A stretch of 44,926 nucleotides of DNA from a virus. Position numbers and translations under genes: made by a program. The notes below the pieces were generated by a model. The model was not told the DNA's origin and made no database searches. It saw only the letters and a program-made list of their open reading frames with translations. Location of the stretch: IMG/VR virus record IMGVR_UViG_3300045119_000122, positions 1 through 44,926 of that record; one strand, written 5' to 3'. Of this stretch, positions 2,890 through 38,836 are shown piece by piece (the first letter of the stretch is position 1; each line of letters begins with the position of its first letter).

Positions 2890-3549
2890 ATGAAAACCGT
2901 GACTGCTAAACAAACATTTAAATCCGTGAGCGCTAAGCAAGTTGAGCTGCACGCTGCGTTGGCTGACCGGCTTGGCAAGAAACGCCCAGCAGTAGAATTT
3001 CAATTGCCACAGTATGAGCTAACAGATATTGCTGAGCTGGTAGAGAATCACAAACCAGTTTTGCTTACCTGTCTTAACGCTGCAATTGCACAACTGGCTA
3101 AAGACAAGTTTGCAGCACAGCCTGCTGATTGGACATGGTTTCCAAGTGTAGAGAATGATCTAAACTTGGCTGAATTGGCTAAGTCGTTTGAATCGCAGTC
3201 TCGCAGTCGTGTGCTGACTCTGGAATCTGCCGGCAAGCTCGCAGCTTGGCTTACTCGCAACATGGCAGCAATTGTTACCGGCATTCAAGTTGTGGAACCT
3301 GCTTACATGCCAACACAAGCTCAAGCAATTATCGGAGTTGTAAGCCAGTTTAATAAGTATGAGGCGAAAGGCTCTGAGTTTCTGGCTAAGATCATGTTGC
3401 GGCTTGAGCAGATTGCAGAAGCAATTGCTAGCTCGGATGATTTGGCAGAAGACTTTAGCAGCCAACCAGAACTGGCTAATGTGTATGATGCATTGATTGC
3501 CCGATTCAGTAAGGCAAGTGATGATGAGATTAGCGAGGACGCATTGTAG
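2890..3549 (+). CDS. Acidic helical protein, 219 aa, paralog of 10110..10718. Ends ...EISEDAL
   Basis: Track ORF 2836..3549. The ATG at 2890 is preferred because GGAG precedes it. Followed by a rho-independent terminator. Confidence 0.7.
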   Translation: MKTVTAKQTFKSVSAKQVELHAALADRLGKKRPAVEFQLPQYELTDIAELVENHKPVLLTCLNAAIAQLAKDKFAAQPADWTWFPSVENDLNLAELAKSFESQSRSRVLTLESAGKLAAWLTRNMAAIVTGIQVVEPAYMPTQAQAIIGVVSQFNKYEAKGSEFLAKIMLRLEQIAEAIASSDDLAEDFSSQPELANVYDALIARFSKASDDEISEDAL

Positions 3550-4991: not shown

Positions 4992-5429
4992 ATGTCTAGC
5001 TTGTCTACTAAGGTACGTCCTACTTTCACACTTGCAGAAATGCGCTTACTAGCACAAGGTATGGAGTTGCTACTTAATCGACATATTCAGGCTGGTGATT
5101 TTAATAATCCAATCTTGCTAGATATGATTAGAATTAAAGACTATTGCGGTGGATTTGTTCCAGCAGTGTCTAAAGCAAATGAGCAATCTAAGTTAGCTGC
5201 TTACATTCAGATGCAGGGTATTGAAACTTCTATTCCGCAAGGTACTGCTATTATCCAGCCTTTGGAAACTGGCAGTATCGAACTAACAGACGATCAAAGA
5301 TATGATCTTTTAAAACTGCGGGATGAATCTACATACAGTGACGAAGATAAAGTATTCATGCTTAATGTAGGCACTCTTATTATGATGCGTCGTGCTGGCA
5401 TTAATACAGTTACTGAGTCAGACCTGTAA
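4992..5429 (+). CDS. Hypothetical protein, 145 aa. Ends ...TVTESDL
   Basis: Track ORF. Bracketed by two large structured non-coding elements. Confidence 0.7.
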   Translation: MSSLSTKVRPTFTLAEMRLLAQGMELLLNRHIQAGDFNNPILLDMIRIKDYCGGFVPAVSKANEQSKLAAYIQMQGIETSIPQGTAIIQPLETGSIELTDDQRYDLLKLRDESTYSDEDKVFMLNVGTLIMMRRAGINTVTESDL

Positions 5430-6073: not shown

Positions 6074-7078
6074 ATGAAAGTGACTTGCCCAATTAGTGGC
6101 GTAACTTACATACTTATTGCGCCAGTGCGCGGACACGCGACTCACCCGCACCCGATGCTAAGTTCCAGCATTAAACTTAGTCAGCTTCACGACTGGTATC
6201 TAGCAGACTGGATTAAAGGGGACTTACCAGAACTGGAGACTCACTTGCTTGGCTGTGCTTACCTGCTTAAGTTACCAGTAGAATCTGTATGTATTACTAA
6301 CTTCGGCATGCCAGCTGCTAACTATGATCGATTCTGGTCTAGTAACATGGAGCGGCTGGCAAAACTAGCAACACGTTTGGAAGGTAAAATAGTTAAAGCC
6401 CGTAACTTGCCACGCATGGTAGTTAATGCTGAAACAATCTCTAATTTGCCTGACTGGCTTGGCACACTGGAATCTCAGATTGCTTGGGATTCAATGCCAG
6501 TTAGTGACAAGGCTAAAGAATTGAATCGCGAATCTTACAAAGTCTCCACTGAGGTATCTGGCCGCACCATTAGCCAATATCTAGATACCAGCGAGATTGA
6601 TGGAATAGTGTTGCGGGCATTGCGAGCTAGCCCACTAGCTAAATCTGAGCAGAAAGCATTGCCAGTAATTCTGGCGGATTGGGCGGGCAAAGTTACAGAC
6701 TTTCCAGCACATAGCCGCACTCGTTGGCACCGTGTGATTCAGACCATATTCCAAGATAACTATATTGACCAGATTCTAATGTCGGATATGACAGTGAAGC
6801 AGGTTAAAGCTATTGAGGAACATATGAAACTGAATACTCCACTGGATGCAGTGGGCACCAGTCACAGCAGCCTGTTAATGCAGCGACTGAGCGTAGTAAT
6901 TCCAGTGTTGGAAGACTTCAGTCCAGCAATCAGCAGTCGCAAGAAAGTAGATGATGCGGCGTTAAACTCGGCTCTTATGGGCGAGAGCAGCAAACCAGCA
7001 CAATCTACTGGCCCTAAAATGACACTGGCTGAGCGACTGGCTGCACGGCTGGCAGGTGTGGGGAGTAAGCAGCAATGA
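6074..7078 (+). CDS. Hypothetical protein, 334 aa
   Basis: Track ORF. GGAGA SD. No motif recognised. Confidence 0.75.
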   Translation: MKVTCPISGVTYILIAPVRGHATHPHPMLSSSIKLSQLHDWYLADWIKGDLPELETHLLGCAYLLKLPVESVCITNFGMPAANYDRFWSSNMERLAKLATRLEGKIVKARNLPRMVVNAETISNLPDWLGTLESQIAWDSMPVSDKAKELNRESYKVSTEVSGRTISQYLDTSEIDGIVLRALRASPLAKSEQKALPVILADWAGKVTDFPAHSRTRWHRVIQTIFQDNYIDQILMSDMTVKQVKAIEEHMKLNTPLDAVGTSHSSLLMQRLSVVIPVLEDFSPAISSRKKVDDAALNSALMGESSKPAQSTGPKMTLAERLAARLAGVGSKQQ

Positions 7079-7694: not shown

Positions 7695-9479
7695 ATGAAT
7701 ATGAAAGTGGAATCACCCGTAGAAAAACTGAGACGGCTAGCCCGTGAATCCCGCGAACGCCGAGAGGGTGTAGCAGCAGCGCCACTAGATAACACTAAAA
7801 TAGCAGAAGCATTACAGGAACTGGCTGCACCAGAACCTAGTTTCAACGGTGTGCCTTACACTGAGCGCCAGTTACTAGCCATTACTTACGCAACTCAAGG
7901 TGCCAGTTTTTGTATGACTGGTGCAGCTGGTACTGGTAAAACAACCACTACCCGCGGAGTTGTGTCTGCACTAATTCAAAGTAATAAGATTCCAACTCTT
8001 AAGATTACCCACAACTATCTAAGTTCTGGTACGTCCGGAATAGTAGGCTGTGCATTTACTAACAAAGCTGTGCAGAATATCAAGCGGGTAATGCCAAAGG
8101 ATCTGCAAGGTAACTTCATCACTATTCACAAACTACTAGAATTCCAGCCTGAATACTGGGAAGAGTATGATGATGAGAAAGGTAAAGTAGTTACCAAGAT
8201 GGAGTTTAAACCATCTCGTAATAAAAACAATCCACTACCAGAAAGTCTAAAGGTACTGATAATTGAAGAAGCTACCATGGTTTCTATTGACTTATGGAAT
8301 ATGCTATTTGACGCGCTACCAATCGGCGGCAATATTCAAATCATTCTGGTAGGTGACATTCAGCAGTTACCGCCAGTATTTGGTAAGTCTATCTTTATCC
8401 ACGCAATGCAAGTCGGCATTAAAGTAGTAGAACTAGATCAAGTTCACCGGCAAGCGCTAGATTCACCGATCCTAGAACTAGCGCACCGTGTGTTGTCCGG
8501 TAAGATCATTCCCGGAGTAGAGCTGAAAGAGTGGAACAAAGAAACTTCCAGCGGTAAAGTTACTATTGTGCCATGGAAAAAGTCACTGACTCCTGAGATT
8601 GCAGTGCGTAAAGTAGCGAAAGACTTTCTACCTAATGCAATTAAGGAAGGTACATACCATCCATTTGAGGATGTTGTGCTGTGCCCGTTTAACGTTAACT
8701 TCGGTGTGGTTGAGATTAACAGGCACATTGCTACTTACTTGGCTCAGTCTGAGAAGTGGAATCCAGAAGGTAATCTGGTGTATGAAGTAATTGGCGGAGT
8801 TAATACAAAGTATTTCCGCATTGGTGACAAGGTTCTGTGGAATAAAACTGAGCACATTGTCACAGATATTAAAGTTAACAGTAAATACTATGAGAAAGAT
8901 CCTCAGCTACCAAGTCAGACACTTGATTACTGGGGAACCGAAACTGACGAGCATGCACAAGATGCAATGATGGCATTGCTGGCAGGTGATACCGGTGCAG
9001 GTGATGCGCACAGTAAAAAGATCGATCTGTTACTAGCTTCATTTGACCAGCTGGCAGATAGTAATGGCGAGAAAGCTCAGTCCCGGCAATGCAGTCACAT
9101 TATTAAGGTGCAGTCTAATGACTTTCCAGAATCAGAAATATCTACTAGCGGTGATCTTGCCTTACTTGACTTGGCTTATGCTATTACTGTTCATAAATCT
9201 CAGGGGTCTGAATATCGTAGAGTCTTTTTTGTCACGCACAAATCCCACGCAACAATGTTATTTCGTGAGCTTGTTTACACTGCCATCACGCGAGCCAAGG
9301 AAGAATTGGTAGTTATATGCCCAGACAATCTATTTGTGGCTGGCATTACTAGCCAACGATTGCCAGGTAAGACATTAGCTGAAAAGATTGCAGCGTTTCA
9401 ACGGTATCTGGAAACAAGTAAAGTCTCTAGTACTGAACTGCCGAGAGGCATTGGATTACTTGTTGGTAATGAGGGTTAA
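7695..9479 (+). CDS. SF1 DNA helicase, RecD/Dda-like
   Basis: Walker A GAAGTGKTTT, Walker B LIIEEATMVS, motif III ILVGDIQQLPPV, C-terminal AITVHKSQGSEY. Confidence 0.85.
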   Translation: MNMKVESPVEKLRRLARESRERREGVAAAPLDNTKIAEALQELAAPEPSFNGVPYTERQLLAITYATQGASFCMTGAAGTGKTTTTRGVVSALIQSNKIPTLKITHNYLSSGTSGIVGCAFTNKAVQNIKRVMPKDLQGNFITIHKLLEFQPEYWEEYDDEKGKVVTKMEFKPSRNKNNPLPESLKVLIIEEATMVSIDLWNMLFDALPIGGNIQIILVGDIQQLPPVFGKSIFIHAMQVGIKVVELDQVHRQALDSPILELAHRVLSGKIIPGVELKEWNKETSSGKVTIVPWKKSLTPEIAVRKVAKDFLPNAIKEGTYHPFEDVVLCPFNVNFGVVEINRHIATYLAQSEKWNPEGNLVYEVIGGVNTKYFRIGDKVLWNKTEHIVTDIKVNSKYYEKDPQLPSQTLDYWGTETDEHAQDAMMALLAGDTGAGDAHSKKIDLLLASFDQLADSNGEKAQSRQCSHIIKVQSNDFPESEISTSGDLALLDLAYAITVHKSQGSEYRRVFFVTHKSHATMLFRELVYTAITRAKEELVVICPDNLFVAGITSQRLPGKTLAEKIAAFQRYLETSKVSSTELPRGIGLLVGNEG

Positions 9480-10109: not shown

Positions 10110-10718
10110 ATGACTCAAGTACAACTGGCAGTAACCACCGACGCTAAGTTCAACTACCGTGAAAACAAAGAAACTAGAGTTAAGCGCCCGTCGCTGGAGC
10201 TGAAAGTTCCTACCGTAACTGTAGCAGCAATTGCTGAGTATCTGGGCAGCGAAGATCCTAAAGTAGTTTCGCTGGTAGTAGATAACATTCAAGCAGTTAT
10301 CACTAACTTGGTTCGCAGCTACGCAGATAACGATCTGGAATTCTCGCAAGAGAAACTGGACGCACTGATTGCTGAAGGCAAGATTGCTCTGGAAGTTGTG
10401 GCTAACCTGCCACGCTCTGAGCGTAACAGCCTCACTAACGAAGATCTGGCAGCCTTTGGCGCAGTTTATTTCAAGCTGGCTCAGGAACTGCTGGACAAGT
10501 CGGAAGGCCAAGCAACTGCTGCTGTTGTTGTATTTAACAGCCGCGTTAAAAAGATTGCTGGTAACGTTGCTGCTCTCAACAAAGTCAAAGCTGACTTGGA
10601 AACTTTCCTTGAGAAAGCTGATGACGCAGTTATTGAAGAGCATGCCCGCTCCCTGCAATATCTGACCAGCAAGATCGACGAGTACTTGGCTGAAGATATC
10701 ACTGAAGACAGCCTGTAA
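10110..10718 (+). CDS. Acidic helical protein, 202 aa, paralog of 2890..3549, probably highly expressed. Ends ...DITEDSL
   Basis: Track ORF. Own promoter candidate and terminator. Codon choice resembles the capsid gene. Confidence 0.8.
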   Translation: MTQVQLAVTTDAKFNYRENKETRVKRPSLELKVPTVTVAAIAEYLGSEDPKVVSLVVDNIQAVITNLVRSYADNDLEFSQEKLDALIAEGKIALEVVANLPRSERNSLTNEDLAAFGAVYFKLAQELLDKSEGQATAAVVVFNSRVKKIAGNVAALNKVKADLETFLEKADDAVIEEHARSLQYLTSKIDEYLAEDITEDSL

Positions 10719-10758
10719 TTCGAAACAAACTTTGAGTAGGCCAACTGCTCAACTACTT

Positions 10759-10777
10759 AGCCCGCCTTGTGCGGGCT
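10759..10777 (+). terminator. Hairpin terminator with a short U-tract, possibly leaky
   Basis: AGCCCGC/GCGGGCT stem, CTTGT loop, then TTTG. Confidence 0.5.
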
Positions 10778-10779
10778 TT

Positions 10780-11482
10780 GTCAGTAGTGAAGTTTGTCCG
10801 CGCAGCCGTTGTGCACAAACCGAGTACGCCAGCAACTTCACAGTGAGGACGAGGAAAAGATACTACAGTTGTGCTAGCGTATCTACTGAGCCGCAACGCA
10901 GGATATTCGTACCTTACCTAATTTAACCCGCCTTTCCTAATTGGATTGTGCGGGTTAAGTCAGTAGTAGGGTTTGTTAGTATCTGCTGTGAGTACGGGTT
11001 CGATCCCCGATAAGCTATTATGCTGAATATGCTGGTGCATAGATAAGACGTAAGACTCAGGGTTGGATTCCCTGCACTAACTTACTTTACTAATCGGAGA
11101 AAGTACCAGAACTAAAAAGACTGGGAAATGCTGAGTATTCCAGACGAATTTGAGCCGGGCACTGGAAGAGAATCTAAAAAGCCCCTTAAAGATTCGGGTC
11201 GGCGGTCACTGCCGCGAAGTTGGTTAGGTCTTATGTCACGGTGAGTTACTAACCTCAGTAGAAAGTGTGACAACAATTGCGTAGCAGACAAGGAAGTTAA
11301 AGGAGACTAAGTTATAGATACTACCCGCTAAGGCTGGTATATACCCTCCTGCTACATGTGGTCGCTGCGCCACGTTAAATCCAGCAGCAACTAATTCAAA
11401 GGTACGCACGCTAACAGTGCTATCTAAAACTGCCTCAGGTTAGCCCAATGCGAATTGGTAACTAGCACTGGGGCTTTTTGTT
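10780..11482 (+). ncRNA. Candidate large structured non-coding RNA region (class unknown)
   Basis: About 700 nt with no credible ORF in a compact genome. Many local hairpins, for example GTGAAGTT(10787-10794)/AACTTCAC(10834-10841), AGATAC(10857-10862)/GTATCT(10878-10883) and CCAAT-GCGA-ATTGG (11445-11458, GNRA loop). Also T-arm-like GGGTTCGATCCCC. A T-run at 11475-11479 is a possible 3' end. Strand and ends are inferred. Confidence 0.35.
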
Positions 11483-11498
11483 GCCACGAGGAAATTAA

Positions 11499-11753
11499 AT
11501 GCTATATCTAACTAGTGTTGCGGTTAGCTTTGTAGCTGTATTCCTAAAAGGTTTTCAACACAAGAATGTAATTGCTGGAAAATACTCAGCTACTTTTTAT
11601 ACTTCATTTGCAATGGCTGCTTTTGATTGGGCTACCATTACAATAGTGTTAAAAGGTGGCTGGATAGTTGCAATAACTGCTGGAACTGGTGCAGCGTTTG
11701 GTATGATTACAGCCATGGCGTTGCATGATAAATTATTTAAATCAAAAGGATAG
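11499..11753 (+). CDS. Small membrane protein with three predicted TM segments (holin-like topology)
   Basis: Track ORF. Hydrophobic segments and a charged C-terminus, HDKLFKSKG. Confidence 0.6.
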   Translation: MLYLTSVAVSFVAVFLKGFQHKNVIAGKYSATFYTSFAMAAFDWATITIVLKGGWIVAITAGTGAAFGMITAMALHDKLFKSKG

Positions 11754-12069: not shown

Positions 12070-12786
12070 ATGAGCCAGACAGCACAGATTAAAAAGTTCA
12101 ATTTTACAGAGTCACAGCTGACTAAGTTGTGCAAAATGCAAGACGAACTCAATACTTACATTCACCCTAACTGGAAGTGGCAAGGATTTGATTGGGAAAC
12201 TGCTGTAAACGATGAGTGTCTTGAAATTCTAGGACATCTTGGTTGGAAGTGGTGGAAAGATAAAACTTATAAGCAAGGGGTTACTGAAGCTAACAAGGCT
12301 CAGATTAAACTGGAACTGATTGACCTGCTGCATTTTGTAGTTAGTAGCCGTATTGAGAACGCCCCAGATGGAGAGAATGGATTCCTGGAAGTGGGAATTA
12401 ATGTAGCATTTGACCCAACTGGTTACGGATTTTACGAGAGTGTTAAAACTCTGCAACAAGATGCATTGCACTACGGAATTAATACTGACACGGTGCAGTT
12501 TCTTACCAGACTTATGCATCTAGTTGATATGACTGAGCAGGAGATTCTGGAAACTTACACGCAGAAGTATGTGTTGAATAAGTTTCGTCAGGATCACGGA
12601 TATAAAGACGGTAGCTATGTTAAGGAATGGGAACTGGAAGATAATCTTGGTGGTTTGCGTCTCGAAGATAACGAAGTTCTAGCTCGGGAAGTTAAGGCTC
12701 TCGTATTAGAAGGCCAAGATACTACCGACGAAACAATCCTTTACGAGCGGCTAGAGTTGCGCTATAATTCACGCCTGAACAAGTGA
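12070..12786 (+). CDS. All-alpha NTP pyrophosphohydrolase, dimeric-dUTPase-like
   Basis: Pattern ...ECLEILGHLGWKWWKDK...ELIDLLHFVVS resembles dimeric dUTPase (dUTPase_2) motifs. Recalled from memory, not searched. Confidence 0.55.
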   Translation: MSQTAQIKKFNFTESQLTKLCKMQDELNTYIHPNWKWQGFDWETAVNDECLEILGHLGWKWWKDKTYKQGVTEANKAQIKLELIDLLHFVVSSRIENAPDGENGFLEVGINVAFDPTGYGFYESVKTLQQDALHYGINTDTVQFLTRLMHLVDMTEQEILETYTQKYVLNKFRQDHGYKDGSYVKEWELEDNLGGLRLEDNEVLAREVKALVLEGQDTTDETILYERLELRYNSRLNK

Positions 12787-12811: not shown

Positions 12812-13504
12812 ATGGCAGAATCATTGGCAGAAAGGCTTAAGCGGATAGCTGCTGAGAAGAAAGCAGCGGCAGCTAAGGTAACTGAGCCAGTTGCGGAGGT
12901 AAGCAGTGATGACAGACTGGAGCCAGTACGGGAAGGAGAAGTCGCCGGAGCAGCAGATATTACAACTTCGGCAGACACTGACAACAGCCCAGTTGGAACT
13001 GGCGGAGACTCGGCAACAGTTGAAACTGGCTGTGGCAGCGAAACAGCCAGTCAGTCAGATAGAACTAAAGTCAGCTTGGAGTCTGATCCAACTGCTGGAG
13101 AATCGGCTAGCAGCAACGAAGGGCTGGAATCGGGACATGCAGTACCAGTTGGATCAGACTCACAAGCATCGAGTAGCTTGGAAGTCCTTGACAATTCTGA
13201 GCTGGTTGATTCTACTCGTGTTGATGTACTTCCTGAACACCCACTAGCAATGCAGTTTGCAGAACTAGAGGCCGCTCTACTAGCTCGTGATCCAACATTT
13301 AAAACTATCTTGCGTCAAGTTCACCAGCATCTGGGCAAAGATCCTGAGCTAGTAACTATGATGACTGAAGAAGAAGTAGCAATGATAGTTGGTGGGCTTG
13401 TGCTATTTGCTAACACAGAAATTGTAGAGCCAGCGAAAGCTAAGGGTGTAAAGAAAGCAGTAGCGGCTGCAAAGAAAGTTGTAATCAGCGCAGACGATTT
13501 GTAG
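12812..13504 (+). CDS. Acidic protein, 230 aa, with a long low-complexity S/T/D/E linker. Ends ...VISADDL
   Basis: Track ORF. GGGAGA SD. Codon position 1 is strongly G-rich throughout. Confidence 0.7.
   Translation: MAESLAERLKRIAAEKKAAAAKVTEPVAEVSSDDRLEPVREGEVAGAADITTSADTDNSPVGTGGDSATVETGCGSETASQSDRTKVSLESDPTAGESASSNEGLESGHAVPVGSDSQASSSLEVLDNSELVDSTRVDVLPEHPLAMQFAELEAALLARDPTFKTILRQVHQHLGKDPELVTMMTEEEVAMIVGGLVLFANTEIVEPAKAKGVKKAVAAAKKVVISADDL
12909..13247 (+). CDS. Embedded out-of-frame ORF, 112 aa: Q/L-rich helical region plus a C-terminal TM segment (candidate overprinted gene)
   Basis: GGAGG at 12895-12899 lies 6 nt before GTG 12906 and 9 nt before ATG 12909. The product ends ...SLTILSWLILLVLMYFLNTH. 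It lies entirely within the disordered linker of 12812..13504. Confidence 0.35.
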   Translation: MTDWSQYGKEKSPEQQILQLRQTLTTAQLELAETRQQLKLAVAAKQPVSQIELKSAWSLIQLLENRLAATKGWNRDMQYQLDQTHKHRVAWKSLTILSWLILLVLMYFLNTH

Positions 13505-13519
13505 TAGTGGGAGTTAGTG

Positions 13520-13984
13520 ATGGCTAAGTTTGGTCGGGCATTGTGGGAAGCAAGTGACGCAGGACAATCAGTCGGGCAACTAGAGACGGCTGTATCACTG
13601 TGGCTTCGCACTTTAGGAACCCCACTAGACGACCAACTTGGCCTAGCTAATATGATTAGATTGTTAGTAAAGCCAGCAAACTCTCTGTACTTTGCAGAGG
13701 GTATTCCAAAGTTGCCAAGGACAGTAACATCTACTGGTGTAATGGTGCCACACATTCCAGGAATATCTATTCTCTGGGCTAGTGAGGCTAATGCTATTCA
13801 CCCTAGGCTAACTTTGGAATATCTAAAGTATGCAAGTCAAGAAGTAAGGATGAACCTTAGTTGGCTTGAGTATGCCCTTGCCAAGGCGATCGGGTCGCTG
13901 TATAATTCGGGCGTAGATTGGACAAGCCGATTGGGTAAGAAGATTGAAACAATTGCAGGAATCGAAAAGGTAGACTGGCTATGA
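13520..13984 (+). CDS. Hypothetical protein, 154 aa
   Basis: Track ORF 13517..13984. The ATG at 13520 follows GTGGGAG. Confidence 0.65.
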   Translation: MAKFGRALWEASDAGQSVGQLETAVSLWLRTLGTPLDDQLGLANMIRLLVKPANSLYFAEGIPKLPRTVTSTGVMVPHIPGISILWASEANAIHPRLTLEYLKYASQEVRMNLSWLEYALAKAIGSLYNSGVDWTSRLGKKIETIAGIEKVDWL

Positions 13985-16736: not shown

Positions 16737-19106
16737 GTGACTAGTCAAAGTATTGCAATAACCAGGCAGAACCGCGAGGTAGCTGCTAAGAAAAACATTC
16801 TACTCTGGGTAGATTGGGAAGACAAGCCATATGTATCTAAGCTGAGCAAAGTATTTGCTTCGGCAAACATTCGCGTGCATGATGGTGCACCAGAAGCGTT
16901 AGAGATTGTAGCTAAGGCTTGCAAGGATAAAGGGTTTACCAGCATTGTAACTACCAGACTAGATGTTCTGATTAAGTTACTGCCAGCTGGGCGCGTACAG
17001 AAAGCCAAGATTAAAAACTACACAGGTAGTTTAATTCCATTCTGTGGTGTGGAGTTTCTAATCCTGCCACCGCTGAAGCAGCTGGTTACAGTTGAGTATG
17101 GCGAATGGATGGTTAAACATCTGTGTGGTAAGGTACTGTATCCAGAGAAGTGGCGTAAGACTTCTGAGTTTCGTTGGTGGCTAGTAGAGTCAGGCTCTGA
17201 CTTTGTTAAAGCGCTTAACCGTCTGGAGCACTGTGACTTAATCTCGGTGGATACTGAGACAGTCCGGAATCCACGGCCAGCAATTGAGTTGGTACAATAC
17301 ACTGGATTTAAGTTTGCGACTAACGAGTCTTGGACTTATGTAGTGCCAATGAACAAGATGGAAGCTGTTAAGTTCATGCGGCAAGCCAATGCACTGGACG
17401 TACCTAAGGTATTACAGAATGGTAAGTACGACTGTGCTTACTTCTTTGCTTACAGCGCACCATTGACGGCATACTACTATGATCTCAAGAATGCAATGCA
17501 CGCCCAATACTCAGAGCTCCCAAAAGACTTGGCATTCAGTTCGAGTATTTGGATTAGGGAAATTATGTATTGGAAAGATCTGTCAAGTTCTGGAGATTCC
17601 CAAGACAAGTTTCGGTATGGCGCACTGGATACGTGGGCAACAGGTGAAGCTTTTATTGCCTGGCTTGAGCAAGCACCAGACTACGCTAAGTCAAACTACC
17701 TTGAAGAATTTCTACTTGTTCCCAGTCTCCATATGTGTGAGATGCGGGGGATTAAGCGGGACATGCCAAGGCTATATGAAGCAGCAGAAGCTGGAGCTAT
17801 CAAGCTCGACGCAATCTTGCGTGAAGTCCGTGCACTAGTTGGCAGTCCTAGATTTAACCCCAGCTCGCCAGATCAATGTGTACGTTTAATCTGTGCAATG
17901 ACTGGCGCTAAGTTGCCAGACAAATCAATCAAAGTTAAGGACATGACTCCTGAGCAAAAGCGGGAGCGCCAGTCCTCAGCTGAGAAAGCGATTGTAAAAG
18001 CTAGTTATGCACACCCACTTAACGAACGAGTGCTTGGTAAGATTCTTGAGTATCGTGGATTGCGTAAAGAATTGAGTACTTACTTACCATTAGCCGAGAA
18101 AGCTAAAGAGTTTGGTGCGGGAAACCGTGCGAGAATTCTTTACTCACTTAACCCTGATGGTACTGACAGTGGCAGGCTTGCATCTAAGTCTCACCATTTC
18201 TGGTGTGGATTGCAGATTCAGAATATCAGTTCTGATGGTGCCTGCAAATCAACTTTAATCGCTGATGATGGATTCCACTTTGGTGAAGCAGACTACTCCC
18301 AGGCTGAAGATCGTGGAGTTGCCTTCAGTTCTGGTGATCCTGCCTTGCTAGATATCTTTGAGCGTGGAGTAGACAGCCATAGTTTCAAAGCTGCAATGTT
18401 CTTTGGTATGCCGTACGAAGAGATTTATCAGGCAGCAACTCCAGAGTATATTGATGAAGCCACTGGTGAGATAATCCCAGCAAAGAAAAAGAAAGTATTG
18501 CAGCCTGACATTCGTCAGCTAGGCAAACGTATTAACCATGGCGCAAACTACAACATGGGTGCACAAGTTCTATTAGAAACTATGGGCCCTAAAGCAACTC
18601 GTGAAGCTCAGAGACTTCTGAAACTTCCTGCTCGCTATACACTGATTGAAGTATGTAAGTATCTTCTGCTGTGTTACGAGAAAGCATTTCCGACTGTAAA
18701 GACTGATTATTATAGAAGCATTAAACTGCAAATTAAGCAAACTAAAATGATGGTGTCAGATACCGGATGGGTGCGCTACTGCTTCGGCGATCCCGAAAAA
18801 AGTAAGCCAGCTCTGAATAAGTATGTGGCACATAAGACTCAAAACTTAAACGCAATGATCCTTAATAGAGCCTGGCTAGTTATATTCCGCGAGCTAGGTT
18901 TTAATCCCAACTTTAAACTCCTCGCTCAAATCCATGACTCGATCCTGTTTCAGTACCGTATCGGACACGAATACTTAGCTGAACGAGTCAAGGAACTAAT
19001 GACATTCCCTGTACCAATCACGGACTGCAAGGGAATCACAAGAGACTTAATAGTCCCGGTTGATATCAAGTTACTGGGACGTACTTGGGCAGGTACAAAT
19101 GAATGA
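16737..19106 (+). CDS. Family A DNA polymerase with a 3'-5' exonuclease domain
   Basis: Exo I SVDTET, Exo III YGALDTWA, motif A ADYSQAEDR, motif B RQLGKRINHGANYNMG, motif C QIHDSILF. The GTG at 16737 follows AGGAG. The track start at 16701 is a TTG. Confidence 0.9.
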   Translation: MTSQSIAITRQNREVAAKKNILLWVDWEDKPYVSKLSKVFASANIRVHDGAPEALEIVAKACKDKGFTSIVTTRLDVLIKLLPAGRVQKAKIKNYTGSLIPFCGVEFLILPPLKQLVTVEYGEWMVKHLCGKVLYPEKWRKTSEFRWWLVESGSDFVKALNRLEHCDLISVDTETVRNPRPAIELVQYTGFKFATNESWTYVVPMNKMEAVKFMRQANALDVPKVLQNGKYDCAYFFAYSAPLTAYYYDLKNAMHAQYSELPKDLAFSSSIWIREIMYWKDLSSSGDSQDKFRYGALDTWATGEAFIAWLEQAPDYAKSNYLEEFLLVPSLHMCEMRGIKRDMPRLYEAAEAGAIKLDAILREVRALVGSPRFNPSSPDQCVRLICAMTGAKLPDKSIKVKDMTPEQKRERQSSAEKAIVKASYAHPLNERVLGKILEYRGLRKELSTYLPLAEKAKEFGAGNRARILYSLNPDGTDSGRLASKSHHFWCGLQIQNISSDGACKSTLIADDGFHFGEADYSQAEDRGVAFSSGDPALLDIFERGVDSHSFKAAMFFGMPYEEIYQAATPEYIDEATGEIIPAKKKKVLQPDIRQLGKRINHGANYNMGAQVLLETMGPKATREAQRLLKLPARYTLIEVCKYLLLCYEKAFPTVKTDYYRSIKLQIKQTKMMVSDTGWVRYCFGDPEKSKPALNKYVAHKTQNLNAMILNRAWLVIFRELGFNPNFKLLAQIHDSILFQYRIGHEYLAERVKELMTFPVPITDCKGITRDLIVPVDIKLLGRTWAGTNE

Positions 19107-20415
19107 GCAAGCCAGAGTCAGTAGGCTTAGAGTCAGTGACAGTGACAACCCATACGTTAATCCTGACGGATCGACAGACTTCTTTAACGATTACATTACG
19201 TACACAGGGGGAACAGAAGTCCCAGCTCACGCTAACCGTTGGTCAGCAATCGGTATGCTGGGAGCATGGCTTGGAAGGGATATTTTCATTAGATACGGAT
19301 CATCTAAACTCTATGCTAATCAGTATATCATGCTACTCGGGGAAGCGGGATCAAAGAAGTCTACCGCTATTAAGACAGCTAAGCGAACTCTTAAGGCTGC
19401 TGGCTATTCAACATTCTCAGCTGAGAAAATTTCAAAAGAGAAATTCTTAGAAGAGTTATCCAAAGATAAATCTGGTGGAATGGAATCCAGTTTCACACCA
19501 AACATTCTAGATCAACAACTCTGGGGAGACTTGGATGAATCAGATTACAGGCAAGTCTGGGTTACAGCTGATGAATTCAATGAGTTCTTTGCCAACAACA
19601 TTCTTGAATTCTGCTCCACGCTCGGCAACCTGTGGGACTACGATGGGATATACGAGAACTCTGTTAAACACGGAGCCTCAGTTGTTATCCCTAACCCCAC
19701 TGTTAGCATTCTTTCCGGTAACACGCCAACAACTTTTGCTGGGACATTCCCCATCGAAGCAGTTGGACAAGGATTCTTCAGCCGAGTTCTGGCAGTCCAT
19801 ATTAAAGGATCTGGACGCAAGATTATTAGACCTAGAGAACCCTCAGAAGCAGAGACCGAATCAATCATTGCTAGACTACTGGAGATTAAGAACTACCACA
19901 CAGGGGAAGTTACCATCACGGAAGATTCCTGGGCTTTACTAGATAGGATATACCAAGCATGGAAACCAATCCCAGATTCTCGATTCATATCTTACGGAGG
20001 TCGGCGAGTAACTCACCTGTTGAAACTCGCACTGATACATGCAGCTTCTAGGCTTAGTAAAACTATTGATCCGATTGATATCCGTCGGGCTAATACTGTA
20101 CTTGATTACACAGAACACTTTATGCCAGAAGCCTTTGGTGAATTCGGAACATCCCGAAACTCTGGGATGACACATAAGATTCTTAAGGAACTGGAGATTT
20201 CAGATGAGTTACTTAACATTCATGATCTGTGGGCTAAGGTACAGCTAGACTTTGATAAGCTAGACAGTTATCAGAGTCATGTGATGGGTATGATACAAGC
20301 AGGTAAAATCCAAATGGCAGGTGACAAGTTGTTACCGGCTAAGCGGGTACTTAAAACTCCGGTAACTGAATATCTTGATTACCGGTATATGGTTGATGAA
20401 GAGCGTGGGGCGTAA
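19099..20415 (+). CDS. P-loop NTPase, putative replicative (SF3/D5-like) helicase
   Basis: Walker A GEAGSKKST, Walker B-like WVTADEF and motif C-like ILSGNTP. The ATG overlaps the polymerase stop (ATGAATGA). Confidence 0.5.
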   Translation: MNEQARVSRLRVSDSDNPYVNPDGSTDFFNDYITYTGGTEVPAHANRWSAIGMLGAWLGRDIFIRYGSSKLYANQYIMLLGEAGSKKSTAIKTAKRTLKAAGYSTFSAEKISKEKFLEELSKDKSGGMESSFTPNILDQQLWGDLDESDYRQVWVTADEFNEFFANNILEFCSTLGNLWDYDGIYENSVKHGASVVIPNPTVSILSGNTPTTFAGTFPIEAVGQGFFSRVLAVHIKGSGRKIIRPREPSEAETESIIARLLEIKNYHTGEVTITEDSWALLDRIYQAWKPIPDSRFISYGGRRVTHLLKLALIHAASRLSKTIDPIDIRRANTVLDYTEHFMPEAFGEFGTSRNSGMTHKILKELEISDELLNIHDLWAKVQLDFDKLDSYQSHVMGMIQAGKIQMAGDKLLPAKRVLKTPVTEYLDYRYMVDEERGA

Positions 20416-29173: not shown

Positions 29174-30340
29174 TCACACTCCTTTAACTTTAAAAATATT
29201 GTTACTTAGAATCGCTTTGCCCACCAATCCGCAGATTGGCTCGCCCAGGAACTTGGTAATAGTCCCAAGAGGATACCGCAAGTGATCAACAAAGGTGCCA
29301 GCAGAAGCAAGCAGGGCAGTACGACTACGAGCAACAGGTAAGCAGATTGCAGTCCAAGTTTCATCACCTTCTTCAATCTTTTCTGCAATTGCAATTGCCC
29401 AGGATTGATATCCAATTGTCACCTCCGCAGGAAGTGTGCTCAGGTATTTCTCTCCTTTAGCGTGAAGATCCTTATCCAGCAAGCCTCGATCTTTTAGTGC
29501 TGTGCAAATTACAGAACCACCAGAAGTACCACCACTACGACCACCACCGCCACCAGTACTGCCGCCTACCAGGCCACTAAGTGCAGAACCTAGCAATCCA
29601 CCTAATGCACCAAAACCGCTAAATCCTGCAGAAGTATTGCCAGTATCCAAGTCCATACCAAAGTTAATTCCTTTGGCATCTGGAACACTGGAACTGTCAT
29701 TAAAGCTTCCCAGTGTAGACGTATTAATTCCATAACCTTCAGCAGCATTAAATCCAGTACCGCCACCGCCTACAGTTCCTCCGAATCCACCATAACCGCC
29801 AAAGTCAATATTGTCCAGCAATCCCTTACCAGAGCCGCTACCAGAATCAGAGCCACTGAGATTGATTCCCAGAAGGTCAGTAATAGCGGATCCTACTGAG
29901 TTAGCACCAGATTCAATCAAAGGGCTAAGAACTTTAGACCCAAGATTAAGTGCCTGAGATGCAAGGAATGCACCGCCCAGAGTTGCTGCAGTAGTACCTA
30001 AACCTACCCCATCCTGCTTAGTGGTTTGAGTTTGTGGTGCAGTAGTAGTCACAGTTGGACTGCGAGCAAGTTCAGCTTTGTTAGCTGCTGTTGCATACAG
30101 TTGGCCAAGTAGAGAATCCTCAGTTGTAGAGTTATACAGCCCAGACTTACGGGCTGCACTGCCTACATCTTTTACTCCACCAGAGCCAGAAAGAATCTGA
30201 TTGAGAATTTCCTGAATTCCCTGATCCGAGACATTGGTTTGTTGTGTAGTAGTTCCACCACTGGTTTTAGTGGTAGAGCTTTTTCCTTGAATGCCACTAA
30301 TGATATTCATTAGCGCACTTAACTGATCAGCTGCTGCCAT
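29174..30340 (-). CDS. Gly/Ser-rich internal virion protein, 388 aa
   Basis: Track ORF. Long G-rich tracts. Position. Confidence 0.5.
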   Translation of the reverse strand: MAAADQLSALMNIISGIQGKSSTTKTSGGTTTQQTNVSDQGIQEILNQILSGSGGVKDVGSAARKSGLYNSTTEDSLLGQLYATAANKAELARSPTVTTTAPQTQTTKQDGVGLGTTAATLGGAFLASQALNLGSKVLSPLIESGANSVGSAITDLLGINLSGSDSGSGSGKGLLDNIDFGGYGGFGGTVGGGGTGFNAAEGYGINTSTLGSFNDSSSVPDAKGINFGMDLDTGNTSAGFSGFGALGGLLGSALSGLVGGSTGGGGGRSGGTSGGSVICTALKDRGLLDKDLHAKGEKYLSTLPAEVTIGYQSWAIAIAEKIEEGDETWTAICLPVARSRTALLASAGTFVDHLRYPLGTITKFLGEPICGLVGKAILSNNIFKVKGV

Positions 30341-30352
30341 GATTAAATCCTC

Positions 30353-30838
30353 TTAGGTTTCTGGATTAGCTGCAACCCAGGCTGCTTCTAATTGAGCTTT
30401 GCGATCGCTCCATACAGGTTTATTAATTCCTGTAATTCTGCGGTAAGTTGCTACACCTGCATGGATACGTCGATATTGCTCAGCATCTACATCTAAAATT
30501 AGCATAGCTTCGAATAGAACATTGTCAGCCTGCTCACGTGTAATCTTACATGGACGCCCATCTAGTGTCAAAGAAAGATATTCACAAAGAATGTCGTGCA
30601 CAATAGTTGCTGCACCATAACGACCCCAAGGAGGAATGATACTCCAGAGAATCCTCGGTACTGACGCACCATCTACCAGATATCCCCTTGGCACATCAAC
30701 CCACTTATTAGATCCTTTATCGCCAACATAGTATCTAAATCCTTTCATCACTCGCCAGAGATCTGTATCTAAGATCTTAGATTCTACCAGCGCATAAGAG
30801 GTCATAACCTCTCCAGAGAATCTAGTAAAATCGCTCAT
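30353..30838 (-). CDS. DUF1353-family protein
   Basis: LVDGASVPRILWSIIPPWGRYGAATIVHD matches the DUF1353 signature as I recall it. ATGA overlap with the peptidase gene. Confidence 0.6.
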   Translation of the reverse strand: MSDFTRFSGEVMTSYALVESKILDTDLWRVMKGFRYYVGDKGSNKWVDVPRGYLVDGASVPRILWSIIPPWGRYGAATIVHDILCEYLSLTLDGRPCKITREQADNVLFEAMLILDVDAEQYRRIHAGVATYRRITGINKPVWSDRKAQLEAAWVAANPET

Positions 30839-31278
30839 GCTATCCCCGGCTTATAGTTATCTTGTCCCAAAAATGTTAGCTCATTCCCTCTAGGTTTTTT
30901 ATCTTGTACAAATGAAATATGAATCCAGGTTTGCTCATAAATTAATTGGTCATAGCCAATTAGGCCTTTATGTTCCATTAAGATCTTACACACCTCTAAT
31001 GGTAGTCCAGACCGAGGGGCAGTAAAATCTACTGCTTCCCCTCGACTGTGTTGGCTGGTGCTGACTCCCCCGACAGCCTTATTTACCTCTGGCCCACGAA
31101 ACCAAGAGTTAATTTTAATTGGGTTATTACCTAGTACAGTGCGTACAATTTCCATTTTAGTTGCAGTGTATTTCATTCTGCCAAGCTGCACAGAATCAGG
31201 AATATTTTCAAGTCCCCTACTCACCGCGGTGGTTGAGAATGTAGCTTCATCTAATGTAAAGTGCTCTGACAAATTCAT
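30835..31278 (-). CDS. Peptidase M15 (LAS-type zinc peptidoglycan peptidase), putative endolysin
   Basis: SWFRGPEVNKAVGGVSTSQHSRGEAVDF (Hx6D) and a distal WIHISF histidine. Confidence 0.7.
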   Translation of the reverse strand: MNLSEHFTLDEATFSTTAVSRGLENIPDSVQLGRMKYTATKMEIVRTVLGNNPIKINSWFRGPEVNKAVGGVSTSQHSRGEAVDFTAPRSGLPLEVCKILMEHKGLIGYDQLIYEQTWIHISFVQDKKPRGNELTFLGQDNYKPGIA

Positions 31279-36018: not shown

Positions 36019-36354
36019 TCAAGTCTCCTTGGTTGTATGATTATTTAAACAAAAATTGCCAGCACAAAATTCATCTTCGGTTGGTAGATTCTTTCGTACT
36101 TGTGAATCTTGTATAGCCCTAAAAGCTAAAACCAATTGATCCTGAGTTTTAATTTGATTAGCTGTACATTCCTTATGCTGTAAATCCAACTGGCGCATTC
36201 TCCAAATTAAAAACAGTATTAACACAAAAGGGGACAAACCCATTACGGTTGTCCCCCAAGCTTGAAAATCCGCAGCGCTGAATGAGCCGCTAATTACCCC
36301 GAGAGTGACAGTTACAATTCCTGTAACTGCATCAGATTTTTCTGAAGGAGTCAT
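36019..36354 (-). CDS. Two-TM membrane protein, 111 aa, inside the fibre cluster (holin candidate)
   Basis: Hydrophobic segments AVTGIVTVTLGVISGSF and MGLSPFVLILFLIW. Tightly packed between fibre genes. Confidence 0.5.
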   Translation of the reverse strand: MTPSEKSDAVTGIVTVTLGVISGSFSAADFQAWGTTVMGLSPFVLILFLIWRMRQLDLQHKECTANQIKTQDQLVLAFRAIQDSQVRKNLPTEDEFCAGNFCLNNHTTKET

Positions 36355-38311: not shown

Positions 38312-38836
38312 TTAGTTAGTGCCGCCAGCTTTCAGCTTATCGAGGGTAATTTGCTGCGGAGTGCGAGTATCTACAACATCCGCTGGATTGTGCAGATTGG
38401 TAGTAAGGGATGTGGTAGTGGAAGAGCCTTCCACAACTTCCTTGGTCTGGGATTCAGCAAGCTTACGCTGATCTTCAGTAAGTTCAGTTTGCCCAGCTAC
38501 ACTGGCGCTAGAGGAGATTGCTTGCTGGGTAAGAGTTTGGTGAGATACACCAGCATCTACCAATTTGCCGCCAGACTTAAGTTCCTGCATAATTTCCTCG
38601 CGCAGACGTTTCTTAAGTTGATCCATCGGAGTTGCGCATTCCGGATCAATTTGTGGCTCGCCGATATCTACGTAGATACCAAATTCTTGATTGTTGTCAG
38701 CAGCTTCTTGCAGCTCGGCTTGCAGCTTGGTATTGGTAGTAAAGAATCGGCCAAGAATAAATGCAACAGTGTTGCCAGATTTCAGGGCTACATTTACGTT
38801 ACCATTGGAGTTTTTGAACAGAGTTACAGTAGTCAT
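38312..38836 (-). CDS. Hypothetical head-associated protein, 174 aa (decoration candidate)
   Basis: Follows the capsid gene after a terminator. Biased codon use. Confidence 0.6.
   Translation of the reverse strand: MTTVTLFKNSNGNVNVALKSGNTVAFILGRFFTTNTKLQAELQEAADNNQEFGIYVDIGEPQIDPECATPMDQLKKRLREEIMQELKSGGKLVDAGVSHQTLTQQAISSSASVAGQTELTEDQRKLAESQTKEVVEGSSTTTSLTTNLHNPADVVDTRTPQQITLDKLKAGGTN

Follow-up and report, generated by a model that had tools for sequence, protein, structure and literature searches.

The host gene and the frame it encloses

The stretch of DNA analysed here (the window, 44,926 nt) is a 44.9-kb contig of a podophage related to PaP2 and PaMx41. Its exonuclease is 34% identical to those of PaP2/PaMx41-like Pseudomonas phages, with which it has the gene order helicase, exonuclease, Sak4-like ATPase and DNA polymerase in common. 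Within this replication cluster, flanked by the dUTPase gene and the gene preceding the exonuclease, lies a gene that contains a second ORF in its +1 frame. We call the enclosing gene the host gene, and the infected organism the bacterial host. The locus carries the following features.

12740..12768, + strand: match to a sigma70-like promoter (TTTACG-17-TATAAT) within the dUTPase gene, in its 3′ end (C-terminal extension); a consensus match only
12812..13504, + strand: host gene, 230 aa, with N-terminal helix (5–23), disordered linker (24–145), helical domain (146–222) and acidic tail
12895..12900, + strand: Shine–Dalgarno (SD) sequence GGAGGT, 8 nt upstream of the ATG; read as E-V in the host frame
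12909..13247, + strand: overprinted +1-frame gene, 112 aa, predicted to be a single long helix that ends in a membrane anchor
12948..13172, + strand: predicted cytoplasmic coiled-coil stalk, residues 14–88, two heptad runs split at Pro47
13164..13184, + strand: basic/aromatic juxtamembrane motif R-x-x-W-K, in which W91 is the sole near-invariant column
13185..13241, + strand: C-terminal hydrophobic segment, residues 93–111, Kyte–Doolittle 1.88
13235..13504, + strand: conserved host domain of ~90 aa, also found alone

The initial annotation proposed the inner ORF as a candidate overprinted gene, and its coordinates are all correct: the ORF spans 12906..13247 from a GTG or 12909..13247 from an ATG, and GGAGG at 12895–12899 lies 6 nt before the GTG and 9 nt before the ATG. 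The match extends to GGAGGT, with spacers of 5 and 8 nt. The conserved start is ATG 12909; GTG 12906 is not conserved among relatives and was rejected.

The two products differ in the way that had been proposed, one being structured where the other is disordered. Host residues 30–145 are of low complexity (47% S/T/D/E), and the AlphaFold model of the host protein is coil at 24–145 (pLDDT about 45–65) between the helix at 5–23 and the helical domain at 146–222. The +1 product is modelled as a single helix at 13–111 with a mean pLDDT of 86.5. Its helices had been described as heptad-like, and two runs can be read by eye from the sequence (a/d residues I17, L20, L24, A27, L31, T34, L38 and A41, then L53, A56, I60, L63, L67, T70, N74, M77 and L81), but the automatic single-register coiled-coil score is weak (0.39 versus a background of 0.28). 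At its extreme C-terminus the protein has a single hydrophobic segment, preceded by basic residues and with no signal peptide, the pattern of a tail anchor as judged from hydropathy only. Among 11 products, two to four K/R residues precede the anchor and none or one follows it. The proposed tail-anchored architecture therefore holds up, and a topology with the N-terminus inside is probable.

The host protein is present in a collection of 15 billion proteins, from which the +1 protein is absent. Used as homolog-search queries, the +1 protein and its alignment returned nothing at E ≤ 1, as expected where gene callers record the host protein instead. Pfam, PHROG and NCBIfam gave no match shared among +1 products, only scattered weak hits to single members; a fold search with the +1 model gave one match (E 7.3), and its Atlas look-alikes at 0.90 are viral proteins without names, a single helix not being discriminating. 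Neither protein had a tblastn match in cultured phages, and a single-protein scan across viral contigs also gave zero matches. The best fold match of the host model was the C-terminal part of CarD (Z 7.2, rmsd 3.1, 78 aligned residues), a likeness that we dropped since this Z lies within the generic helical-bundle range. No description of this gene or family was found in the literature searched, coverage of which was incomplete.

The acidic tail of the host protein is conserved throughout its family, and similar tails end five proteins of the window: ITCDDL (670–1392, − strand), ISEDAL (2890–3549), VTESDL (4992–5429), ITEDSL (10110–10718) and ISADDL (12812–13504, the host protein). They are possibly a common docking signal. 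A helix motif like S-L-A-E-R-L-K-R occurs at 7022, 7713 and 12821 (+ strand) and at 38347 (− strand), that is, at the C-terminus of 6074–7078, the N-termini of the helicase and the host protein, and the end of 38312–38836; it is repeated internally in some host homologs (P0070, P0072). Carrying both elements, the host protein may be an adaptor.

Elsewhere in the window, the late region holds an endolysin gene (30835–31278, opposite strand, 17.6 kb from the +1 gene) and a holin-like gene (36019–36354, − strand) that is conserved in near relatives. A second holin candidate (11499–11753, + strand; phrog_7045 match) is absent from the near loci checked, and 10718–11499 holds no clear + strand gene. 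Further +1-frame ORFs that are long or hydrophobic and have SD-like sites lie at 19103–19450, 19535–19942, 9118–9312 and 29206–29415 (− strand), within primase/helicase, helicase and one structural gene; these could be due to chance. A near relative (L113) is a 46-kb contig in an assembly of the enterobacterium Edaphovirga cremea, and a Gram-negative bacterial host is therefore likely for the window phage. The same contig has a weak Acb2/Tad1-hairpin match (18026–18349), consistent with the anti-CBASS gene of PaMx41. The occurrence of another locus (L025) in a Saccharibacteria MAG was not accepted as evidence of host.

Conservation and selection in the overlap

Taken alone, the window makes a weak case. 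A +1 frame open over 112 codons occurs in 107 of 7064 windows of that length in ordinary genes of this genome (1.5%). A hydrophobic run as strong as that of the anchor arises in 36% of synonymous recodings at genome codon usage (P = 0.017 if the linker's own codons are shuffled instead), because host third-position T becomes second-position T in the +1 frame. Under the recoding null, the combination of SD, ATG and an ORF of at least 50 codons has P = 0.057, falling to P = 0.007 when a C-terminal anchor is added. The feature is thus only modestly above chance in one genome, and it is the comparative data that establish the gene. The values of 0.36 and 0.057 favour an explanation in which the ORF is a by-product of composition, a linker poor in L, V, I and M having few +1 stops and T-ending codons giving a hydrophobic +1 frame.

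The comparison used a near set of 13 distinct loci covering the start region (exonucleases 73–94% identical where sequence was available), together with one partial near locus (L008) and 16 more distant long-linker genes. An SD, an ATG and a +1 ORF that runs for 50 codons or more are present in 13/13 near loci, against 0.91 expected; 12 of the 13 ORFs end in a C-terminal hydrophobic anchor, where 0.12 would be expected. Over a fixed 55-codon stretch of linker upstream of the host domain, the near loci have 6 stops in the +1 frame where 32.9 are expected, and 113 in the +2 frame where 92.6 are expected; the +2 frame has no comparable ORF. Against a by-product of composition, the recoding null keeps composition constant and yet fails (about 0.9 starts for 13 seen, and 33 stops for 6). 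The near products are 61–122 aa long, with a helical stalk of variable length, the R-x-x-W-K motif and the anchor; that of L012 differs in being Met-rich. Of 12 near loci, 11 have a sigma70-like site that matches at 10–11 of 12 positions and lies 36–46 nt upstream of the host start; the site overlaps dUTPase coding sequence, and its conservation may be partly protein-driven.

The start region also leaves a footprint in the host protein, E-V-x-x-[ND]-[DEGVA], which is found in 51 of 71 near homologs (18.2 by shuffling), in 28 of 51 proteins at middle distance (9.3 by shuffling) and in 1 of 13 far ones. Stop codons in the +1 frame of homologs, which would have counted against the gene in the initial annotation, amount to one case amid the general depletion: in L014 an internal TAA splits the ORF into 53 + 50 codons with the host frame intact. 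This stop, which the by-product explanation can claim, sits in a locally replaced 10-codon patch, and in the close relatives L008 and L112 the ORF is uninterrupted at this point. Given the L014 stop and the 20 of 71 near homologs that lack the footprint, the +1 gene is dispensable or at times lost.

Selection was assessed from dN/dS on frame-neutral codon alignments with a Fisher test. In the overlap, +1-frame values are 0.22 (L008/L014), 0.36, 0.31, 0.39 (window/L014), 0.37 (window/L112) and 0.40, all significantly below 1 with p from 5e-6 to 2e-3, the pairs sharing ancestry so that the p-values are not independent. The window/L116 pair is saturated (p 4e-9), and no significant +1 constraint was seen in L010/L117 (0.82) or window/L115 (0.69). 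Host-frame dN/dS is 0.78–1.68 in the overlap and 0.07–0.12 in the domain. As had been anticipated for synonymous variation in the host frame, most near pairs show the fewest substitutions in the overlap at the third codon positions of that frame, whereas the domain shows the reverse, and identity is higher in the +1 frame than in the host frame (window versus L116, 45% versus 26%). Purifying selection thus acts on the +1 frame in the overlap and none is detectable on the host-frame sequence there; outside the overlap the situation is reversed.

Distant pairs (L043/L046 and L056/L057) show +1 dN/dS of about 1.2 in small samples, as a by-product would. In the near clade the constraint on the +1 frame argues against that explanation, as does the clustering of T-ending host codons at the anchor (12 of 19, versus 21 of 93 in the rest of the overlap). 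For this clade it is already largely refuted, and overall we consider it very improbable. With its conserved start, depleted stops and frame-specific dN/dS, the +1 ORF is very probably a real protein-coding gene, and the proposal of overprinting is well supported.

Block replacement and origin of the overlapping gene

The comparison also revealed what the initial annotation had not suggested: the overlap is hypervariable, and the host frame has no detectable sequence constraint in it. Between the window and L014 the ends of the host gene are 94–97% identical, and the +1 proteins 38%. L010 and L117 differ by 1 base in the domain and by 70 in the overlap. In two further contigs with flanks about 93–95% identical, a stretch running from 12899 or 12923 to 13232 has been replaced, 332 nt by 206 nt and 308 nt by 305 nt, the length changes being multiples of three. 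Relatives with flanks 93–99% identical therefore carry replaced, frame-preserving versions of the overlap, and the swap boundaries match the limits of the hidden gene. The overlapped DNA evolves for the +1 protein and is replaced in blocks that keep both frames, and the only visible duty of the host linker is to stay open and flexible (disordered). Such rapid swapping among close relatives resembles that often seen for host-acting genes.

The gene after the host gene (13517–13984) is variable too (89% in L008, 35% in L014), making the region a small island of variability. Two host-frame modules, one ELVTxNTEANLEAR-like and one IEETKVAIL-like, are seen repeatedly in certain linkers, beyond the limits of the +1 ORF (P0007, P0013, P0025, P0183, P0187 and L113 at 8850–8950); in L113 the +1 stop coincides exactly with the onset of a module.

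The C-terminal host domain is widespread, its search matching 384 clusters, and occurs in its short form, with the linker absent, in about 60 of 90 distinct loci, including most outgroup phages. Long linkers without a +1 ORF are found in L023, PaMx41 gp41, P5_0042 and Tiera_038. PaMx41 gp41 (Jamesmcgillvirus, Fredfastierviridae) is syntenic with the host gene and has the same arrangement of N-terminal helix, linker and helical domain; the sequence similarity is weak (HMM E about 0.003; hhalign E 0.014, probability 3%), the exonucleases are only 34% identical, and the gp41 linker differs in having no +1 ORF. In an exonuclease tree (midpoint root, one marker gene, with placements that recombination could affect) the near clade groups together, and other long-linker genes with +1 ORFs fall in at least two more places among short forms. 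Twelve of the 16 distant long-linker genes have SD, ATG and ORF, where 2.3 are expected with window codon usage applied; nine of the products are hydrophobic and three basic. Host-frame codons are closer to genome usage than +1 codons in 12/12 loci, and the +1 product has no outside homologs. Because of the short-form distribution, the tree and the codon usage taken together, we favour the +1 gene as the younger of the two.

The junction at the end of the +1 gene suggests another arrangement, in which a membrane gene precedes a short host domain that is coupled to it and begins at ATG 13250, the long host frame being open by chance. This ATG lies 2 nt past the +1 stop (TAG-ca-ATG, 13245–13252), and the short domain does stand alone in most outgroup phages. 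However, the host frame contains no stops where 61 would be expected if only the +1 frame were kept, and five of the loci in this count were found via the domain alone, so that an open linker was not a selection criterion. In addition, the N-terminal helix is conserved, some homologs have no Met at 13250, and a membrane gene lies just upstream in only 2 of 58 short-form loci. We give this arrangement hardly any credence, although a minor short isoform may start at ATG 13250. The same 2/58 count led us to reject the capture of an upstream membrane gene as a general origin.

A tentative view, which we hold to be somewhat short of even odds, is that the linker is a gene nursery and exchange slot in which unrelated +1 membrane proteins have been born repeatedly and then shuffled as cassettes. 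Wherever the ~90-aa domain carries an N-terminal helix and a linker, a +1 SD and ATG would appear; births would have been independent at no fewer than three separated places in the exonuclease tree, followed by frame-preserving shuffling in a phage–host arms race. In one linker (L024, 24–605) a first +1 ORF is followed by a second, both having an SD, and the second is strongly hydrophobic.

Possible function and relation to known systems

We favour, at a probability of about 0.5, the explanation that the +1 gene encodes an overprinted membrane-tethered stalk serving as an accessory host-interaction factor. Transcription would begin at the sigma70-like site in the 3′ end of the dUTPase gene, and one mRNA would yield two proteins, the 230-aa host protein from 12812 and the 112-aa protein from GGAGGT and ATG 12909, initiation of the latter being, to judge from its conservation, independent of the host-protein start. 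The C-terminal helix would anchor the protein in the inner membrane and leave its coiled-coil stalk on the cytoplasmic side, as the positive-inside pattern suggests. With the linker needing only openness and disorder, the overlapped DNA would be free to evolve for the +1 protein. The stalk, made early or in the middle of infection, would bind an envelope or defence component of the bacterium and so keep out superinfecting phage or block a defence that acts at the membrane.

No family, structure or partner match from database, fold and literature searches points to a function. Exclusion or counter-defence is suggested because the protein is hypervariable, patchily present and membrane-anchored, and we place such a host-interaction role, at roughly even odds, ahead of roles in lysis and in replication or division. 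A related Jamesmcgillvirus, Shea, combines episomal persistence with superinfection resistance (PMC13348215). Its host-gene relatives (PaMx41 gp41) have no ORF, so exclusion by Shea cannot depend on the +1 gene.

The initial annotation cited lambda Rz1 in Rz, a fully embedded +1-frame envelope gene of a tailed phage. The precedent stands as a layout but is not supported as a link to lysis: here there is no lipobox, the host gene does not encode a membrane protein, and the locus lies outside the lysis cassette. As a spanin the +1 product fails further, the anchor being C-terminal and 10 of 11 products having no Cys in the first 30 residues; so does its position between dUTPase and exonuclease. 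The gene could still act as a lysis accessory, as a timing regulator, an antiholin-like protein or an Sgl-like inhibitor of envelope synthesis. A lipobox scan of the window gave no credible spanin pair, in some distant loci (L022, L037) the +1 product begins with an anchor and continues as a helical stalk, and overprinted phage membrane genes known so far are mostly lytic, such as phiX174 E (PMC8227390), while +1-embedded Sgls occupy poorly conserved rep regions (PMC7693330). A lytic role is nevertheless unlikely: the +1 gene belongs to the replication cluster, the endolysin and the holin-like gene are among the late genes on the other strand, and the anatomy of the product is unlike that of Rz or Rz1.

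The phi29 protein p1 forms a coiled coil and has a hydrophobic C-terminal end. Like the +1 protein, p1 and p16.7 of phi29 are small, early, membrane-associated helical proteins encoded among replication genes, p1 associating with FtsZ and p16.7 organizing membrane-associated replication (PMC11476376); they differ in being stand-alone genes of a Gram-positive phage, with no sequence or fold match to the +1 protein. The +1 protein might similarly tether phage DNA replication or the divisome to the membrane, as its location among replication genes would fit. If the partner were a conserved housekeeping protein, near-identical phages would hardly be expected to exchange the stalk in blocks, and the gene is missing from most of the family; we regard a tether as rather improbable. 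For the preferred accessory host-interaction factor, ElaB/YqjD, XhlA-like proteins and T4 Imm offer parallels, having a C-terminal anchor with inner basic residues or being small envelope-acting membrane proteins; these are analogies only, with no Pfam, PHROG or NCBIfam match shared.

Long same-strand overlaps are thought to be rare in tailed phages outside spanins, and gene callers discard such ORFs. Overprinting itself is well known from phiX174 E in D and the ssRNA-phage Sgls, which are likewise same-strand +1 overprints with their own SD and arise repeatedly, with unrelated sequences, in weakly constrained parts of host genes (PMC8227390, PMC7693330); in phiX174 E, as here, the hydrophobic segment comes from T at third codon positions of the older frame (PMC8227390). 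Lytic action is not part of this likeness. Unlike those cases, the present one concerns a tailed dsDNA phage that encodes an endolysin of its own, a replication cluster, a C-terminal anchor behind a coiled coil, and an overlap in which the host frame is without sequence constraint. The hidden gene described here belongs to a tailed phage and is well supported.

This group of uncultured phages from soil and wastewater carries a second gene that has so far gone unannotated. The annotated frame is the passenger, and selection is carried by the unannotated frame, which behaves as an exchangeable cassette. Disordered, hypervariable linkers of phage proteins can thus be the shadows of hidden genes, and such genes are detectable from protein sequence alone via the E-V-x-x-[ND]-[DEGVA] footprint. 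From no linker, through a linker without an ORF, to several unrelated ORFs, the family offers a natural series for the de novo birth of membrane proteins, and it supplies a set of short candidate host-interaction proteins.
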